Source: Candidatus Poribacteria bacterium (lineage in GTDB: Bacteria > Poribacteria > WGA-4E > WGA-3G). From it: DNA of 64,000 bases. Shown piece by piece: positions 21,229 through 46,254 of the stretch; the first letter of the stretch is position 1; each line of letters starts with the position of its first letter. Below the pieces are notes generated by a model. It saw only the letters and a program-made list of their open reading frames with translations, had not been told where the DNA came from and searched no databases. The position numbers were made by a program, and so were the translations under genes. The stretch spans positions 384,001 to 448,000 of the forward strand of contig CAXXLX010000002.1 of the NCBI GenBank assembly GCA_963665235.2. Reading direction: 5' to 3'.

Positions 21229-22377
21229 TCAGGAACGCTCCTTATTGCTGATAACCTGTAGCGCGTCCTGAATTTCCGTTATGACTGCCGCATCGGTTTC
21301 ACATGTTAATCGGGTTCGCAAACTCTGTTCAGCCGTTTTCCCACCGATTTGTCCTAATGCCCACGCCGTGTGGCTACGAATTAGCGGTTCATCGTCAGTC
21401 AATGTCTTTTGAAGGGCGGGGACAGCGGCGCGCCCCCTCCAATTTCCGATAGCAACGATAACATTGCGTAAAAACCCGCGCCGTTTTGCACGTTTGATAG
21501 GGCTCCCCTTAAACCTTTTGCTAAACTCAGGCTGCGTCATACCGACCAGCGTCAGCAATTCGGGGGCGAGATTCCCGCTTCGCGGGTAAAATGCCGGTTC
21601 ATTTGTAGGGGAAGCTTTGCTGTTCCAAGGACAGACCTCTTGACAGATGTCACATCCAAAAATGAGGTTGCCCATTTTCGAACGGAGGTGCTGCGGAATA
21701 CTATCCTTCAATTCAATAGTGAGATAGGAGATGCACAGCCTGGAATCCAGTACGTTCGGTTTAATAAACGCATCGGTAGGGCATGCCTCAATACATTTTG
21801 TACACGTACCACAACTGCCCCGAAGCGGTTCCGCTTCAGGCTCCAATTCAATACTCACCAGTACTTCCGCTATAAAGTACCAGGAGCCGGAACGCCAATT
21901 AATCAGGTTGGTATTTTTTCCTATCCAACCGAGTTTCGCTTTCTGGGCATATTCCCTTTCCAAGATGGGGCCCGAATCTACAAAGACACGGCTCTTGAGT
22001 CTACTTTCAGCGGTGTGCTTAATGAATTCAACAAGACGATTGAGACGTTCACGGATAACGTCGTGATAGTCGTCACCCCAGGCGTATCGAGAAATCTGGC
22101 CTCGAGCCGGGTCGCTTGCGTCAGCTGCCGATGGGTCAACGGTATAATAGTTCATTGCGAGACTAATAACAGATTTCGCCTCTTGTAAGAGTCGCCGCGG
22201 GTCGACTTTGAGGGGGAGATGCTTTTCAAGATACCCCATCTTTCCCGCGTATCCATCTTCAATCCACTGTCGGTAAAGTTGAATTGTTTGGCTCTGTTCT
22301 GCTGGTGTAATTCCGACAAGTTCAAAACCGAGCGCGTGTGCGCGATTCTGAATTTGTTCGGTTAACGTGTCGCCCAT
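21229..22377 (-). CDS. queG: epoxyqueuosine reductase
   Basis: YAWGDDYH, GWIGKN, CGTCTKCIEACPT, FGCDICQEVCPWN, HEAT tail. Confidence 0.93.
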   Translation of the reverse strand: MGDTLTEQIQNRAHALGFELVGITPAEQSQTIQLYRQWIEDGYAGKMGYLEKHLPLKVDPRRLLQEAKSVISLAMNYYTVDPSAADASDPARGQISRYAWGDDYHDVIRERLNRLVEFIKHTAESRLKSRVFVDSGPILEREYAQKAKLGWIGKNTNLINWRSGSWYFIAEVLVSIELEPEAEPLRGSCGTCTKCIEACPTDAFIKPNVLDSRLCISYLTIELKDSIPQHLRSKMGNLIFGCDICQEVCPWNSKASPTNEPAFYPRSGNLAPELLTLVGMTQPEFSKRFKGSPIKRAKRRGFLRNVIVAIGNWRGRAAVPALQKTLTDDEPLIRSHTAWALGQIGGKTAEQSLRTRLTCETDAAVITEIQDALQVISNKERS

Positions 22378-22420: not shown

Positions 22421-23491
22421 TTAACGGCTTTTTGTTCCACGGGGATAAGAGCCCAGAACTTTAACGCTCTGGCAAACCGTCTTAAGTTGGGCGAGCGCGG
22501 CATCCACAGGTTCATCTGCAATATGCCCATCCATATCGGCGAAAAAGATATACTCCCACGCCTTAGAACGCGAAGGGAGGGATTCAATATAGCTGAGGTT
22601 TCGCTGATATTTCTCTAATATGCCCAACACTTCGTATAACGCGCCGACTTTGTCTTTCACAGAAAAAAAGAAGGAGGTGCAATCATCCCCACTTCTGTCG
22701 ACGGTTTCCGTGCCAATCACGAGAAAACGGGTCGTATTATTCGGATTATCCATAATGGAGTCTGCTACTACCGGTACGTGATAAATATCACTTGCGAGTT
22801 TGCTAGCGATTGCTGCAGCATTCGCTTCATTTGCTGCACGTTGTGCTGCCTCTGACGTACTCACAACTTCAACCTGCTCCACCGTTTTCACAAACTGATT
22901 TAGCCACATTCTGCATTGTGCAAAAGGCTGTCGATGTGAGTAGATACGTTGGATTTCTGTGAGAGAAACCCTTGATATCAGGTGGTGCCGAATAGGTTGA
23001 AAAATCTCAGCGCAGATTTTCAGCGGGGTATCTTGAAAACGTTCTAAAACATCCCGGACAGTCCCGTGTATAGAATTTTCTATGGCTACCACGCCGTAGT
23101 CAGCACGTCCAGTTTCCACCTCGGTAAAGATATCGGTCTGCGGCGTAATCGGCAGCATCTGAGCGGAGGTGCCGAAATGGACTAAGCTTGCAGTGTGTCC
23201 GAAACTTCCAGCAGGACCGAGGAAGGCAACCCGTTCGGGGGCTTGCAAAGCACGAGATGCCGAGAAAATTTCGGTCCAGATTTTCTCCAGGGCAGCGTCG
23301 GGAAATTTACCGCCGTTCTGCGCTTTCAATCGGTTGCGAATTTCGGTTTCACGCTGCGGCGAGTAGATTTCTATACCTGTCCCCGCTTTTACAGAACCGA
23401 CCTGTTTGGCAATATCCGCCCGTTTGTGAAGCAGTGCCAAAATTTCGTCATCTATCTCGTTAAGTTGGTCTCGATATTTCTTAAGTTCCAA
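22421..23491 (-). CDS. pheA: chorismate mutase/prephenate dehydratase
   Basis: N-terminal CM domain, FLGP.GSF, ENS..G, NTTRF, ACT domain. Confidence 0.93.
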   Translation of the reverse strand: MELKKYRDQLNEIDDEILALLHKRADIAKQVGSVKAGTGIEIYSPQRETEIRNRLKAQNGGKFPDAALEKIWTEIFSASRALQAPERVAFLGPAGSFGHTASLVHFGTSAQMLPITPQTDIFTEVETGRADYGVVAIENSIHGTVRDVLERFQDTPLKICAEIFQPIRHHLISRVSLTEIQRIYSHRQPFAQCRMWLNQFVKTVEQVEVVSTSEAAQRAANEANAAAIASKLASDIYHVPVVADSIMDNPNNTTRFLVIGTETVDRSGDDCTSFFFSVKDKVGALYEVLGILEKYQRNLSYIESLPSRSKAWEYIFFADMDGHIADEPVDAALAQLKTVCQSVKVLGSYPRGTKSR

Positions 23492-23675
23492 ATCTTTGAT
23501 GTTCCTTGCCGTTTTGATTGTGACGCATCTTATAGTAGCTCTTATAATTATTTATACACGCGGTGAGAATCGCACGGGCGGGGAGACCCCGCCCCTACAA
23601 GTAATTTATGAGATACGCTCTAATAGCGTAACGGCTCGTACACGACGGGCGATGAATCGCCCTACTACGAACCGA

Positions 23676-23924
23676 CTACTCCCCGTTCAATTCCCTCATA
23701 GCGGCAATCATCTCATCATCTGAGGGATTGTCTTTCACCATCTGAACGAATTCGTCAGGCGTTAGCTTATGTTCCTCCAGGAACATTCTGTCCTGCGGTC
23801 ACGGGTAAATATATTCCCCGATGATGCCAGCCATCTTCGCGTTCGCTTTGTCCGAAATTCTGGCTAACCAAGGAATGCCGCCGATAATCATATCACGGTG
23901 CCGCGGTTTCCAATCGAGAGACAT
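23676..23924 (-). CDS. DUF5069-like protein with in-frame UGA (candidate selenocysteine, residue 42; 82 aa)
   Basis: AGGAGGT RBS; GG..WL.R..DKA.A...G..GEY.YP-TGA-PQD.MFL; frame stays open to TAG at 23676. Confidence 0.75.
23769..23786 (-). promoter_or_regulatory. candidate SECIS hairpin
   Basis: AUGUUCC-UGGA-GGAACAU, 12 nt after the UGA. Confidence 0.6.
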
Positions 23925-23973
23925 CTTTTTCACCTCCTTTAGTAATAGCATAGCAGCATTCGGAGCATGCCTG

Positions 23974-26900
23974 CTATTGGATATTTTCCTCAAGTTGCCC
24001 CAAGGTTTTCCCTAACAATTCAATGTTTCGTCCGTATTCCGCCCAGTCTCCGTTGCGTTGTGCGTTCTGCGCGCTATTATAGTAGACGCTCGCCTGTTTA
24101 ATTAATCCCTGAAACGATGTTTCACCTTCGCTAGGCTCGGTTACCTCAACGGTATCACCGGCGGTAGATGTAGTGGATTCAATTTGGGCACCCGCCCTCT
24201 TCATGAACATCGTTTTAAGTGCCTCATCGAGACTTTCGCCCCAGACGACATCCTCCTCATATCCGATGACAACGCGGCGGAGTTCCGGTATCGCGGTTTC
24301 TTCATCTTCGGACTGAATATAGATGGGTTCCACATAAAGCAGCGAGTTGTTCATTGGCATAATTAAGAGGTTGCCGCGCAGAACACGTGTGCCTTCTGTG
24401 TTCCATAAACTGATTTGCTGCGAAATCTCAGGTTTTTGACTAATAAAGTTTTCAACCTGCATCGGCCCGGGCACCAATTTCCGTTTAGGAAATCGGTAGA
24501 CAAGCAGCTGACCATATTGTGGTAAATCGCATCGAGCGGCGAGCCACGCGATGAGATTCGGTTTGTTCCGAGGGGTATACGGAATCATCAACATAAACTC
24601 TGCCTTCTCTTCCCCCGGAAGCCTGAGCACAACGTAGTAAGGCTCTACTGGCTGCACGTTGCTCGGTGATTTTTGAACAATTGGACGCCGTTGCGCGAAC
24701 GGTGTCGTTGGCTGCGCTGTAACGGGCTGAGTGCTTTGTGCATCCGTGTTGTCATACAGTTCAGTCCCGATTTCCCACTGGTCCTCACCTGCATAAAAGG
24801 TTACCGGGTCTTTCATGTGATAATCTTGATAGATACGTGCCTGTATAAGGAACATTGTCGTTGGATAGCGGATATGCGCTTTCAGTTCAGCGGGCATCTC
24901 CTCGAACGTCTTGAAAAGCTTCGGAAAAATTTTGCGATAGCACTCCGCAATTGGATCTTGTTCCTGTTCAATGAGATAAAAATCAACTGTACCATCGTAA
25001 GCATCAACAACAACCTTCACAGAATTTCGGATGTAATTTCCCCACGATTGGTTATCCCTCCGCTGCATGAATTCCTCCGTAGAAACAGCATACGGGTACC
25101 GGTGCGTGACGGTATACGCATCAATCATCCAGACAAGTTTGCCGTTATAGATAACAGCGTACGGGTCGCCATCGTACCGCAAGAACGGGGCAATTTTAAG
25201 GATGCGCTCCTTGATATTTCGCTTGTAAAGCACACGGCTTTTTGACGTAATTTCACCCGGCAACACAAATTTGATTTCGTTATTAAACTTCAGCATGTAC
25301 ACCAGCTTCCGCCAGAAAGAGGATAGCACAACACCACCTTTACCTTGATAGGCGTAGTCAACGTACTGTTGTCCCTCCTTCGGATAATCAAACTCAAGCT
25401 TTAGCTCGGTACGTTCCGGGTGCACAATGACATACCGATTCGTCCGTTCACCGTAGTAGACACGGGGCCCCGGTTTATCCGGCTCGCCATCAAACCTAAA
25501 CGGCCATTCTGATTCATACTCAATCGGGGGCAATCCTTTAATGTACATATAAGGTTTACCGTTATCGATTTCGTTTACTGGACTGACCACAGCCCCATAA
25601 CCGTGTGTATAGGTATAAGTCTGCTTATACCAATCATTTCTCACAGCCGGCGGGAGGTCCTCTATATTTAGTTCTCGTACAGAGAGCATCACCTGCTGCG
25701 GATCATCTTCAAGCGTATATCTATCAATATCAACATCGAAAAAATCGTACTGTGAACGTAACTCTTGGAGTTGTCTGAAGGTTCGGCGTAGCGGTCGCCA
25801 ATCCCAAAGACGGATACTATTAATGACAGGCTCGTTCTCGGGACTCATTATGTCAGTATATGCAAGCTCCTCTGTCAGTGGATATTCCTCTTCCGTCACA
25901 GTATTATCCTCTAAACCGTAAGCGTGAAGCGTCGCCTTGATATTGTAATTGATATATTTTTCCTCTAACACCTGTTTATTCGGTTCAACCCGCCACGTCT
26001 GTATCAGTTTCGGGTACATCTGACCGAGCAAACCAGCGGCTATAAATATACCCAATGCCCCGAAAGCAAACGTGTTGCGTTTCAGGAAAATGCTCACAAT
26101 CAGAACTATGGCACACACCAAGGTTAGCCAGAAGAGAATATGTAGCACTGGCAGCCGTGCCTGTATTGCAGCGTAACCCCCACCGCCACGCACAACATCG
26201 TTTGAGGTATAGAGAAGGTCATACATTGCAAAGCGGTAGTTCCACATTCGGAAAAGAAGCGTCACACCGCCTAAAGCGAACAGATGTGCTTTCACAGCAG
26301 GGGGGGGTTGAAACCGGAACTCATTTGTGTCGCCTGTTATTAACCCGTGGAAAAAGTAGATAATCAACGCAAAAACTGTCACTAATAGGAACAGACCGAA
26401 AAGCGTTCCGCAGATATATCGCTCCATCGGCATTTTAAACACATAATAGGCAACATCCTTATTAAAAACTGGGTCGCGAGCTGGAGATGTGAAAAACGCT
26501 TTCTGCCCCACCTCTATCTGAACCGGTGTACTCAAACGGATACCGTTTGGCAACATTGCTTCCACACTCCCTGTTTGTTCATTCCCATCAACGTGAACGG
26601 TCACTTCGTCACCGACCTGTATCTTTTTCGCCGCTAATTCTAACGTTGAGACAGGTATTTCAGGGGAATCGAGGTTGTTTTCTACAACAATAGGCGTGGC
26701 AGTGCGGAACATAAGTTCATCGGTATGGGTGTAACGTAAATAGACCTCCCAGCGGGCACTTGCAGCGTAACCCATCAAGATACTATATAAAATAGCAAGA
26801 AGCGCGAGACCCCCATAAATCAGTCTTCGCGTGTCCGGTTGGTCGCCTGTAAACTCTGTCCCTCCCATAAAGGTAGGGCTGAGATGTGCCGGTGTGAACC

Positions 26901-27117
26901 GATAGACCAAGTAGAGGTTAACCGAAAGGATTAGCAGATAGATTACCCCAACAATGGCCCCGACGAAGATTTTGGTCGACAGAATCTTGGTATAAACCCC
27001 AAGGTAGTTCACCATGTCGAACCATAAAAAATCTGGATAAATATTAATCCAAGCGGCAACAATACCAACAAGTACCGCTAAGATTGCGATAGTAATAATA
27101 AAACGTTTTTGAATCAT
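23974..27117 (-). CDS. UPF0182 family membrane protein
   Basis: DPVFNKDVAYYVF, IRLWD, DIDRY, YTHGYG, NYIRNSVK. Confidence 0.92.
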   Translation of the reverse strand: MIQKRFIITIAILAVLVGIVAAWINIYPDFLWFDMVNYLGVYTKILSTKIFVGAIVGVIYLLILSVNLYLVYRFTPAHLSPTFMGGTEFTGDQPDTRRLIYGGLALLAILYSILMGYAASARWEVYLRYTHTDELMFRTATPIVVENNLDSPEIPVSTLELAAKKIQVGDEVTVHVDGNEQTGSVEAMLPNGIRLSTPVQIEVGQKAFFTSPARDPVFNKDVAYYVFKMPMERYICGTLFGLFLLVTVFALIIYFFHGLITGDTNEFRFQPPPAVKAHLFALGGVTLLFRMWNYRFAMYDLLYTSNDVVRGGGGYAAIQARLPVLHILFWLTLVCAIVLIVSIFLKRNTFAFGALGIFIAAGLLGQMYPKLIQTWRVEPNKQVLEEKYINYNIKATLHAYGLEDNTVTEEEYPLTEELAYTDIMSPENEPVINSIRLWDWRPLRRTFRQLQELRSQYDFFDVDIDRYTLEDDPQQVMLSVRELNIEDLPPAVRNDWYKQTYTYTHGYGAVVSPVNEIDNGKPYMYIKGLPPIEYESEWPFRFDGEPDKPGPRVYYGERTNRYVIVHPERTELKLEFDYPKEGQQYVDYAYQGKGGVVLSSFWRKLVYMLKFNNEIKFVLPGEITSKSRVLYKRNIKERILKIAPFLRYDGDPYAVIYNGKLVWMIDAYTVTHRYPYAVSTEEFMQRRDNQSWGNYIRNSVKVVVDAYDGTVDFYLIEQEQDPIAECYRKIFPKLFKTFEEMPAELKAHIRYPTTMFLIQARIYQDYHMKDPVTFYAGEDQWEIGTELYDNTDAQSTQPVTAQPTTPFAQRRPIVQKSPSNVQPVEPYYVVLRLPGEEKAEFMLMIPYTPRNKPNLIAWLAARCDLPQYGQLLVYRFPKRKLVPGPMQVENFISQKPEISQQISLWNTEGTRVLRGNLLIMPMNNSLLYVEPIYIQSEDEETAIPELRRVVIGYEEDVVWGESLDEALKTMFMKRAGAQIESTTSTAGDTVEVTEPSEGETSFQGLIKQASVYYNSAQNAQRNGDWAEYGRNIELLGKTLGQLEENIQ

Positions 27118-27254
27118 GAAGCCTCCGCCTCTTCTGTAGGAGCGAGCTGTGCTCGCGATTCCTTTTATGTTAGGAGCGAGCTGTGCTCGCGACCTCCACT
27201 GTTCCCAAAATGCAAAAATGCCGAAAACTAAATAAATAACTCCGATCTGTGTCT

Positions 27255-28092
27255 AACGCACCCGTAAGTCCGAACAACGTGAAGGGCTGGATATATGGCG
27301 CGTTGGCGATTAGCGATTGGCAATTAGCAATTAGCAAGAGGTTTGTGATGCTAAGAACATATCTGAAGCACGTCAGAGTCCACTTCCGCTTGCTATAGGT
27401 TTCAAATGTGTCCAACACACCCGTAAGCCCGAACAACGTGAAGGATTGGATATATGGCAATTTGGCAATTGGCAATTAGCAATTGGCAATTGGCAAGCGT
27501 TTTTGAAGCAAAACAGGTTTCTGATGTGCTTCAGAGCCCTCTTCCTCTTGCTATAGTTTTCCACTTTGTTTAACGCACCCGTAAGTCCGAACAACGTGAA
27601 GGACTGGGTATATGGCAATTTGGCAATTGGCAATTAGCAATTGGCAATTGGCAAGCGTTTTTGAAGCAAAACAGGTTTCTGATGTGCTTCAGAGCCCTCT
27701 TCCTCTTGCTATAGTTTTCCACTTTGTTTAACGCACCCGTAAGTCCGAACAACGTGAAGGACTGGGTATATGGCGCGTTGGCGATTAGCGATTGGCAATT
27801 AGCAATTAGCAAGAGGTTTGTGATGCTAAGAACATATCTGAAGCACGTCAGAGTCCACTTCCGCTTGCTATAGGTTTCAAATGTGTCCAACACACCCGTA
27901 AGTCCGAACAACGTGAAGGATTGGATATATGGCAATTTGGCAATTTGGCAATTAGCAATTGGCAATTGGCAAGCGTTTTTGAAGCAAAACAGGTTTCTGA
28001 TGTGCTTCAGAGCCCTCTTCCTCTTGCTATAGTTTTCCACTTTGTTTAACGCACCCGTAAGTCCGAACAACGTGAAGGACTGGGTATATGGC
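27255..28092. repeat. 158-159-bp tandem array: six conserved cores with two alternating intervening types (A B B A B)
   Basis: core AACGCACCCGTAAGTCCGAACAACGTGAAGG at 27255, 27414, 27572, 27730, 27889, 28048. Confidence 0.9.
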
Positions 28093-28165
28093 GAAAAACC
28101 TATGCAATCCACTACCCCTTATCAAACCGCAAGGAAATATTAAAAAATCAAACCGCAAGGAAATA

Positions 28166-45057: not shown

Positions 45058-46254
45058 CTAAACCCATCCTGCAGAGATGAGATGGCGAAGTTCAAGGAGC
45101 AAGCTAGGTTGATGCCTTAGCACCGTTTGGAAAATCTTTCCTAACGTTATCTCTTCGCTGGGGAGTTTAGAGAGGACTTCTGCGTATCCATCAAGCGTTT
45201 CGTCTGAAATAAATTTGAAAATACCATCTCGGATGCGACAGATATGCTTAAAATGTCTACCAATTTCACGGTCCCAACGTTTTGGGTATGCGCTGAGAAC
45301 TTTTTCGGAGACATCCCCGTTACGAATACCAGCCAGTGCAGCTTCAGCAGCGAACTTTCCCGAGTACATCGCGTTAGGAATACCGCCGCCAGATACCGGG
45401 TCGCTGTGATGTGCCGCGTCCCCAACGAGCAGAATGCCGTCTCGGACAATCCGCGGCAAACCCTCTCCAACTGGCACTGCACCGCCCACTAATCCTAAAA
45501 TTCTACCTTCAGGAAACTTCCGTTTGACGAACGCGTTCAGGTAATCTATGGCGAGTTTACCCCCTTTGCCCGAAATATTCGCACGAATGCCAACCCCAAC
45601 GTTAGCAATGTCATCCCCTTTTGGAAACACCCAAACGTACCCAAGCGGGGCAACGTCGCGTCCGAAGTAAAAATCACAACACTCCGGTATAATATCAATG
45701 TTTGACATGAGATATTGAGCACAGGGGCCGATATCGCGTAGTTGGTGGGTTGTATCGATACCTGCCCATCGTCCCACCTGGGATTCAACGCCATCCGCCG
45801 CAATAACCACCTTCGTTTTGCTAGTGTACTCGCGGCCTGAATAACGGAACACGACACCGTTCACAGCTCCGTCATCAGCGGTTGTGACATTTGTGACACG
45901 TGCTTTCACCATTAACTCAGCCCCAGCATCTGCTGCCATCTCCGCAAGCCGGCGGTCGAACACTTTCCGCTCTAGCACATAGCCTGCGTCTGGACAATCA
46001 ATTGTGACAGCAGTCTCGTTGGGTGAGATGATACGTGCGCTGCTTATGCCACAGGATATCCAGGCTGCTTCGGGCTCAATAAATTCGCGCAGAGCCTCTG
46101 CGCTAATACCCTCCGCTCAGCGGAGCGGCACACCTATTTCTTGGCGTTTCTCTAGCAGCAGCACCCGCAATCCGTTTTCAGCGGCAACCTTTGCAGCGAT
46201 GGAGCCTCCTGGGCCCGCGCCAACAACAATGACATCGTATTCCGCATGTAGCAT
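45058..46254 (-). CDS. geranylgeranyl reductase (DGGGPL reductase-like) with in-frame UGA (candidate selenocysteine, residue 46; 398 aa)
   Basis: [12 protein letters not shown]...EIGVPLR-TGA-AEG, in frame with [22 protein letters not shown]; GGAG RBS. Confidence 0.85.
46087..46103 (-). promoter_or_regulatory. candidate SECIS hairpin
   Basis: GCGCAGA-GGC-UCUGCGC, 13 nt after the UGA. Confidence 0.6.

Follow-up and report, generated by a model that had tools for sequence, protein, structure and literature searches.

In the 64,000-nucleotide stretch of Candidatus Poribacteria DNA analysed here (the window), a short gene interrupted by a TGA codon occupies 23676..23924 on the minus strand. It lies between a gene for a UPF0182 membrane protein upstream (23974..27117, minus strand; 1047 aa; Pfam PF03699, 803 bits) and pheA downstream (22421..23491, minus strand), whose product combines chorismate mutase, prephenate dehydratase and ACT domains (Pfam CM_2, PDT and ACT). 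The gene starts with ATG at 23924-23922 and ends with TAG at 23678-23676 (both minus strand), and its frame has exactly one in-frame TGA, codon 42 at 23801-23799, in a motif that would read Y-I-Y-P-U-P-x-D with selenocysteine (Sec, U) at this codon. The initial annotation, made from the sequence alone, had described a strong ribosome-binding site, an in-frame TGA ahead of the TAG and a read-through product of 82 aa, and all three are there: the Shine-Dalgarno sequence AAAGGAGGTG, read directly from the sequence at 23931..23940 (minus strand), is 6 nt 5′ of the ATG, and the residues of the product match exactly those quoted. The product is without any Cys, and Sec would be its sole chalcogen residue. 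A hairpin, AUGUUCC-UGGA-GGAACAU, had been reported to start 12 nt past the UGA and does so, at 23769..23786 (minus strand). By comparison, the list of open reading frames made with translation table 11 has just one entry at this locus, a 64-aa ORF that stops at the TGA. As detailed below, we assign 23676..23924 as the coding sequence of a putative short-form DUF5069 selenoprotein from its translation, Pfam match, dN/dS and orthologs, and the UGA at 23799..23801 (minus strand) as the candidate Sec codon from orthologs, Cys homologues and RNA-library contigs.

The RNA-library contigs, which may hold DNA and from which strand, level and origin in a single transcript are not readable, hint at transcription of the gene. 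They come from three of the four metatranscriptomic runs with the stretch, all of one study, and cover 23697-24100, 23696-24020 and 23685-24100, spanning the TGA with no variant listed at the positions of codon 42; gaps in their cover (e.g. 23544-23567) carry no meaning. A promoter and terminator scan of 23350-24150 gave two promoter-like sites, compared to 1.2 expected, and no terminators, and a search of the 64-kb window for tRNAs found none.

The read-through product matches DUF5069 across the TGA

The initial annotation had assigned the product to DUF5069 from a family motif, GEYxYxCPxD..FL, with the UGA on the Cys, and had proposed a profile check. In that check, the read-through product matches Pfam DUF5069 (PF16798) with 52.8 bits (cut-off 27; E = 5.9e-14) in one stretch, residues 7-78, that takes in both sides of the TGA. 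A six-frame search of the genome with DUF5069 likewise gives 47.1 bits, with one TGA. The match covers positions 4-75 of the 133 in the profile and is shorter than a full-length domain, so we file the predicted 82-aa protein in a short-form DUF5069 subfamily and not among the full-length members. The short form measures ~81-98 aa, and relatives are often 77-124 aa long. NCBIfam models gave no family at E ≤ 1 for the 82-aa product.

The profile built from the orthologs matches 3omd, the solved structure of a 145-aa protein from Leptospirillum rubarum, with E = 3.2e-17 over residues 8-79, and the residue of 3omd at the Sec column is Cys (GEYTYNCPLDQ). An AlphaFold2 (AF2) model of the product (pLDDT 81.2, pTM 0.69) has a short hairpin and four helices, and Foldseek aligns it to 3omd with a TMq of 0.83, an rmsd of 1.8 Å and 37% identity over 76 columns; the Foldseek search of the PDB gave no match but 3omd, and none informing function. 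The window protein thus has family membership, fold and the motif G-E-Y-x-Y-x-C-P-x-D in common with 3omd and DUF5069, but would have Sec where 3omd has Cys.

A profile search of 1.84 billion representative sequences found 690 relatives at E ≤ 0.001. The best 150 of these, together with a few earlier matches, gave 172 aligned domains, 158 of which cover the Sec column, with Cys in 110, Ser in 32 and other residues in 16; judged from this alignment of the best 150 of 690 relatives and a few others, Cys is the commonest residue at the column family-wide. The column is missing in 14 of the 172 domains, mostly where the gene call stops there, and 13 representatives end at position 41, that is, at this same column. 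Tandem two- or three-domain DUF5069 proteins, among them a 427-aa paralog in the same genome, mostly have Ser at the column (YGSGLD). The motif GEYxYxCPxD..FL therefore describes the single-domain members well but not the tandem-domain paralogs.

The UGA column is conserved across Poribacteria and in two further clades

A six-frame search of 61 genomes from the same order (4 families and 13 genera, with the source genome included) recovered an ortholog with exactly one internal TGA in 61/61. Identity ranges from 99% down to 59%, and the context of codon 42 is Y-(I/V)-Y-P-U in all 61 extracted sequences. When the search was extended to the phylum, the gene was found in 168 of 176 Poribacteria species genomes (E ≤ 1e-10). 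The homologue survey of TGA versus Cys that had been called for thus gave TGA at the column in 160 genomes, other orders (f6, f7 and f9) included, and Cys in eight, all of them in family f8 and with seven TGC and one TGT codons. The remaining eight genomes gave no match (f5, 0/3; f10, 0/2; f11, 0/1; and two genomes of 81% completeness).

A second group of TGA-truncated database proteins was used to seed a metagenome scan, which produced 58 loci, 50 of them with the motif; of these, 45 have TGA and five have Cys. Two marine metagenome clades with TGA, B and C, are distinct from the Poribacteria type, with the protein motifs FRPRSR...WLPRITDK in clade B and LDFKPRARG...Y(V/I)FP-U in clade C. Neither clade had a match in the 176 Poribacteria species genomes beyond the single ortholog per genome, and the only clusters found in a protein atlas were DUF5069 ones, which carried no functional name and, for clade B, no taxon. 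A UGA column conserved to this extent is far more than would be expected by chance.

Both sides of the UGA are under constraint

Selection on the coding sequence was estimated with 55 of the 61 orthologs (four with a one-codon insertion and two with N were dropped), using 400 sampled pairs and discarding those with saturated dS. We obtained dN/dS values of 0.060 for codons 2-41, 0.112 for codons 43-80 and 0.122 for codons 53-80. In the same 55 orthologs frame 0 stays free of stops past the UGA, while the two remaining frames have 206 and 243. These estimates show purifying selection at work both before and after the UGA.

They also bear on an alternative reading, that the UGA is a true stop in a decayed or split gene, which would leave a 41-residue peptide with the rest untranslated or separate. 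Public gene calls P0015-P0018 do end at ...GEYIYP, as do, at position 41, the 13 representatives mentioned above. However, the 40 codons downstream, with dN/dS of 0.11, are stop-free in 55/55 orthologs, and no conserved start lies further on (just 36/61 have Met at codon 47). The Pfam and 3omd alignments, moreover, cross the TGA unbroken, and a nonsense mutation would not persist in 160 species over several orders. We regard a true stop as barely credible.

A hairpin downstream of the UGA has the properties of a SECIS

The hairpin has a 7-bp stem (AUGUUCC/GGAACAU) with a core, GUUCC/GGAAC, formed by 23784-23780 with 23775-23771, and an apical loop, UGGA, at 23779-23776 (all minus strand), which begins 19 nt past the UGA. 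Folding of a 53-nt segment places it in the minimum free energy (MFE) structure (-14.4 kcal/mol, z = -2.29), and 3/200 shuffles were as stable. A 2026 review gives as criteria for a bacterial SECIS (bSECIS) a loop of 3-9 nt, a stem of 4-16 bp, a G in the first two loop positions, a spacing of 16-37 nt and an MFE ≤ -7.5 kcal/mol (PMC13188914). With its 4-nt loop, 5-7 bp stem and G at loop position 2, followed by another G, the hairpin agrees with these published criteria on all four counts, and its 19-nt spacing and its MFE are within the limits given there. The median MFE of 121 Sec-form segments is -10.7 kcal/mol.

When Poribacteria loci were pooled, the motif was present in 172/184, which yielded 118 distinct Sec-type and seven distinct Cys-type segments. 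Among 94 distinct Poribacteria sequences, the inner five base pairs are intact in 100% and the outer two in 64% and 85%; hence, the 7-bp stem described at the outset is present in the window, but only its inner 5 bp are conserved universally. Variants of the 14-nt core in Poribacteria are limited to C-to-U (a G-U wobble), A-to-G (a U-G wobble) and G-to-A together with C-to-U (A-U). Codons 48-51, which specify F-L-E-E, are practically frozen in the 61 orthologs (TTC 61/61, CTG 60/61, GAG 61/61 and GAA 60/61), whereas the same residues elsewhere in the protein vary in their codons (F59, TTC 32 and TTT 29; E57, GAA 17 and GAG 21), and dS for codons 47-52 is 0.24, compared to ~1.4 in the flanks.

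Covariation, which the initial annotation had put forward as a check, amounts to few events inside Poribacteria, where the short, 5-bp core hardly varies, and is stronger between clades, among sequences that are related and not independent. The hairpin is AAGUUCC-UGGA-GGAACUU in clade B and CUUCC-UGGA-GGAAG in clade C, the latter with a G-C pair flipped to C-G by changes in two different codons. The cross-clade comparison combined a choice of 28 of the 94 Poribacteria sequences with all 31 distinct metagenome sequences that were new, 59 in total. Of the cells, 87.4% were paired, compared to 21-63% when the 3′ partner was slid. Double changes were found in 26 cells, a number reached in 0/500 shuffles; given the relatedness of the sequences, this proportion should not be read as a probability. 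Pair 18-31 is G-C in 50 sequences and C-G in seven, and pair 17-32 is A-U in 17, U-A in 14 and G-U in 11, so that both G-C to C-G and U-A to A-U exchanges are seen between clades.

The Cys forms behave differently, for they keep F-L and yet pairing is lost in 11/11 distinct segments, some with recognisable relics of the hairpin. The mean MFE differs only modestly (-11.0 kcal/mol for Sec forms and -8.4 kcal/mol for Cys forms), and since the sequences that yield Cys forms are richer in G+C, we relied on the specific pairs and not on MFE. Fold, frozen synonymous sites, covariation and loss in Cys forms together support the view that the hairpin downstream of the UGA behaves as a SECIS.

Sec might also be inserted with the hairpin serving mainly as a regulatory, stability or pausing element, or merely reflecting constraint on the peptide FLEE, and with the true SECIS elsewhere. 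The stem core is indeed short and codes for this conserved peptide; a subset of bacterial selenoprotein genes is outside the bSECIS model, according to the review (PMC13188914); and Rfam at gathering score has no match in the whole 64-kb window. Nevertheless, the third positions are frozen beyond what amino-acid constraint requires (TTC and not TTT, CTG out of six Leu codons, GAG and then GAA), dS drops 6-fold in the hairpin, F-L is kept while pairing is lost in Cys forms, and the G-C to C-G flip in clade C came about through changes in two different codons. A separate SECIS is, on this evidence, most unlikely, and a SECIS role for the hairpin itself is preferred. By eye, and unscored, L218 and L220 have other sequences with a hairpin still at the same place.

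The source genome has the machinery to decode UGA as Sec

The Sec machinery of the source genome is complete. SelA was found with 520 bits, SelB as a 645-aa ORF with a wing domain of 71 bits, and tRNA-Sec with 78 bits directly 3′ of selB, with TCA as its anticodon (ARAGORN); SelD, found with 359 bits, itself has one in-frame TGA. TGA is at the same time in use as an ordinary stop, both in the queG gene of the window, which terminates at TGA (21229-21231), and in f2 orthologs of the DUF5069 gene.

This bears on the alternative in which a near-cognate or suppressor tRNA, or a variant code, would place Trp, Cys or Gly at the UGA instead of Sec. In a collection of 5.8 billion proteins we found 18 relatives, of which 11 have Trp at the column (P0002-P0012), four are truncated (P0015-P0018) and two have Cys (P0013 and P0014); Trp is also the residue in P0020, and reading with genetic code 4 gives an open frame. 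The Trp calls in P0002-P0012, however, come from short contigs of 530-1237 bases, on which the choice of code is unreliable. Ordinary TGA stops in queG and in the f2 orthologs, a complete Sec pathway with a TCA anticodon in its tRNA, and Cys instead of Trp or Gly as the alternative residue of homologues all argue against such decoding, as does a hairpin that conforms to the published bSECIS criteria (PMC13188914) exactly and only where TGA occurs. Insertion of Trp, Cys or Gly is accordingly very unlikely, and Sec remains the residue of choice.

SelA and SelB were found in 7/8 genomes of the Cys-form family f8, the one miss being in a genome only 61% complete, and all 8/8 orthologs in this family have Cys at the column. 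We thus rejected loss of the Sec trait as the origin of the Cys forms. As f8 genomes keep SelA and SelB with a Cys form of the protein, Sec is not obligatory for its function. Family f5 (0/3), by contrast, is without both the Sec machinery and the DUF5069 gene.

Taken together, these data make it very probable that the locus is a genuine bacterial selenoprotein gene, with the UGA at codon 42 read as Sec under the direction of a SECIS. The initial annotation had arrived at an 82-aa selenoprotein, and the UGA column, the Cys homologues, the SECIS and the machinery all bear this out; the segment past the TGA aligns with the family, the aligned residue is Cys (in 3omd, in 110/158 domains and throughout f8) and TGA recurs elsewhere (160 Poribacteria genomes and 45/50 metagenome loci), the three points on which that proposal had been made to depend. 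In the mechanism envisaged, the ribosome would read the UGA at codon 42 as selenocysteine, with insertion directed by an intragenic SECIS, the hairpin at codons 47-52, which SelB bound to Sec-tRNA(Sec) would recognise, and the product would be a mostly helical, 82-aa, short-form DUF5069 protein with Sec in Y-x-Y-P-U-P-x-D. Because the same hairpin sequence recurs in three clades and relics of it persist in Cys forms, we infer that Sec is probably ancestral in the short-form clade and that the Cys forms are derived.

Comparison with known selenoproteins

Table 1 of the 2026 review gives domain identifiers for all of its 119 selenoprotein families and subfamilies (PMC13188914), and none of the 119 entries has PF16798 or a motif of this kind. 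Our literature search found no mention of DUF5069, of PF16798, or of 3omd with Leptospirillum. As judged from listings, the literature on Poribacteria and selenocysteine has nothing on the DUF5069 gene, and no mention of the family was found in the accessible part of the deep-Sep paper (PMC12013277). GOS_A, a marine selenoprotein family left without a name and in which no conserved domain was then recognised, was described by Zhang and Gladyshev in 2008 with 2 Sec sequences and 155 Cys homologues (PMC2398784) and is absent from the 2026 table (PMC13188914). Clades B and C likewise come from metagenome records, and the DUF5069 selenoprotein and GOS_A, compared here by description, may be identical. 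GOS_B and GOS_C have NCBIfam models, none of which the DUF5069 selenoprotein matches at E ≤ 1. DUF5069 would thus apparently add a family to the known selenoproteins, unless it is the same as GOS_A.

The evidence is similar in kind (UGA with Cys homologues, and bSECIS) to that for the computationally predicted DUF523, DUF1858, DUF3179, DUF1573, DUF166 and DUF466 selenoproteins (PMC13188914), and decoding would be the same, with SelA, SelB, SelD and tRNA-Sec. Unlike those DUF-based selenoproteins, however, the DUF5069 protein would carry one Sec only, unpartnered by a CxxU or UxxC motif, and its Sec form is near-universal in one candidate phylum and not sporadic. With Trx, Grx, Prx and SelW-like proteins it has in common a Sec position at a helix N-terminus and the existence of Cys homologues. 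It differs from thioredoxin-fold UxxC/CxxU selenoproteins in having no second Cys in its 82 residues, and from the thioredoxin fold itself in its predicted hairpin and four helices, for which Foldseek gave no Trx-fold match.

If the assignment is correct, the prokaryotic selenoprotein inventory, 119 strong in the review (PMC13188914), gains one more family. The evidence is unusually complete, comprising near-universal conservation within Poribacteria, Sec forms in three clades, covariation in the SECIS and reversions from Sec to Cys. It further exposes an annotation error that affects all Poribacteria genomes with the Sec form, in which public gene calls stop at the TGA or place Trp there, and points to selenium use as a core trait of these sponge symbionts.

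Possible function of Sec42 and the gene neighbourhood

Sec almost always marks a catalytic residue. By this rule, the functional centre of DUF5069, for which a crystal structure exists (3omd), is likely to lie at Cys/Sec42. The initial annotation had supposed that this Cys would be redox- or metal-active, and it may be so. In the AF2 model, Sec42 directly precedes predicted helix 2 (residues 43-51), with residue 42 capping the helix, and it is one of the invariant positions, which are K6, P7, R8, R10, G15, W19, R22, D25, K26, A29, G36, Y38, Y40, P41, U/C42, D45, L49, F59 and D69. That Sec/Cys42 is a nucleophile for catalysis or redox chemistry, its lone selenol working with no resolving Cys, is a proposal on which we are evenly divided, as it draws only on the rule for Sec in active sites, the position at the helix N-cap and the alternation of Cys, Ser and Sec. 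The Ser found in 32/158 domains (best 150 of 690 relatives and a few earlier matches) would fit a nucleophile or helix cap and is not specifically suggestive of redox chemistry. Further against this functional proposal are the lack of a partner Cys and of a thioredoxin fold and the lack of any neighbour common to the clades. The conserved basic residues raise the possibility that such a single-selenol centre might act on an anionic substrate.

The UPF0182 gene ends 49 nt before the ATG of the selenoprotein gene and is upstream in families f1-f3 only, while pheA is directly downstream in 68/73 Poribacteria loci. None of the clade B and C loci has pheA, UPF0182 or queG nearby. The neighbours are an HDOD response regulator, SBP_bac_5 and an RsmD-like methyltransferase in clade B, and GT2, a semialdehyde dehydrogenase, an APH-like protein and a HAD hydrolase in clade C, with nothing in common across these clades. 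Given the absence of pheA from the loci of both clades, we take its linkage to be lineage-specific gene order and rejected a functional tie; a direct action of the protein on the chorismate mutase/prephenate dehydratase step, or redox control of it, is improbable. On balance we lean towards viewing short-form DUF5069 as an unrecognised selenoenzyme family with a non-thioredoxin-like, single-selenol active site, in which Sec would be ancestral and replaced several times by Cys, and which would be the most widely kept selenoprotein of Poribacteria, locked in place beside pheA.

The window was also scanned for further TGA-interrupted ORFs, which gave one credible side candidate, the remainder being noise.

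Further in-frame TGA codons in the window and source genome

A second candidate selenoprotein lies within the same window, at 45061-46254 on the minus strand, where a 398-aa ORF of the geranylgeranyl-reductase (GGR) family of flavoproteins carries an in-frame TGA at codon 46 (46117-46119; context ...GVPLR-U-AEGIS...). Its read-through product matched the Pfam models GGR_cat (88 bits) and FAD_binding_3 (63 bits). The initial annotation, in describing the UGA of the DUF5069 gene as the second, implied a first, which is probably that of the GGR-family ORF. Like DUF5069, the geranylgeranyl-reductase family is absent from the selenoprotein table of a recent review (PMC13188914, 2026; Table 1, 119 families and subfamilies). 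Elsewhere in the source genome, the SelD gene (G000:C1:3841015-3841941, locus L258; 359 bits) has one in-frame TGA and therefore encodes a Sec-containing selenophosphate synthetase.

DUF5069 paralog and family f2 orthologs

The sole other DUF5069 gene of the source genome encodes a 427-aa paralog with three full-length domains in tandem (G000:C1:2527535-2528782, minus strand; L012 1483-2766), in which the column occupied by Sec in the 82-aa short form falls in a Gly/Ser-rich loop (YGEGSGID and similar) and is not Cys.

Among orthologs of the selenoprotein in the poribacterial family f2, those of genus g10 end at TGA, and hence TGA serves as both Sec and stop codon within one gene. A C-terminal tail of about 12-17 residues, rich in Lys, Arg and Ser (for example, ...NKPSKKRKSKRRKA), was also observed in f2 orthologs. 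The loci concerned are L047, L052, L054, L055, L057, L062, L063 and L069, all of g10, and L070.

Flanking repeats and neighbouring genes

Immediately 3' of the selenoprotein stop is a 32-nt element with a palindrome (window 23641-23672; GGGCGATGAATCGCCC core). This repeat is dispersed through the genome, where about 32 copies occur at ≤4 mismatches. RNA-library contigs with many differing flanks stack on it, to a depth of up to 201, and the element resembles a REP sequence.

In two loci of clade B, one of two metagenome clades that are distinct from the Poribacteria type and have TGA at the Sec column, the neighbouring HDOD response-regulator gene (L205 4059-5249 and L207 4484-4990, both minus strand) is seemingly split or shortened compared to the 483-aa form in L216. 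A frameshift could account for this, as could a further recoded codon or faulty assembly.

At window 27170-28112, which lies upstream of the UPF0182 gene, identical peptide strings such as ...PYIQSFTLFGLTG.L...KRKWTLTCFRYVLSITNLLLIANCQ... recur several times among the ORFs listed for the two strands, and this recurrence suggests a DNA repeat array, tandem or interspersed.
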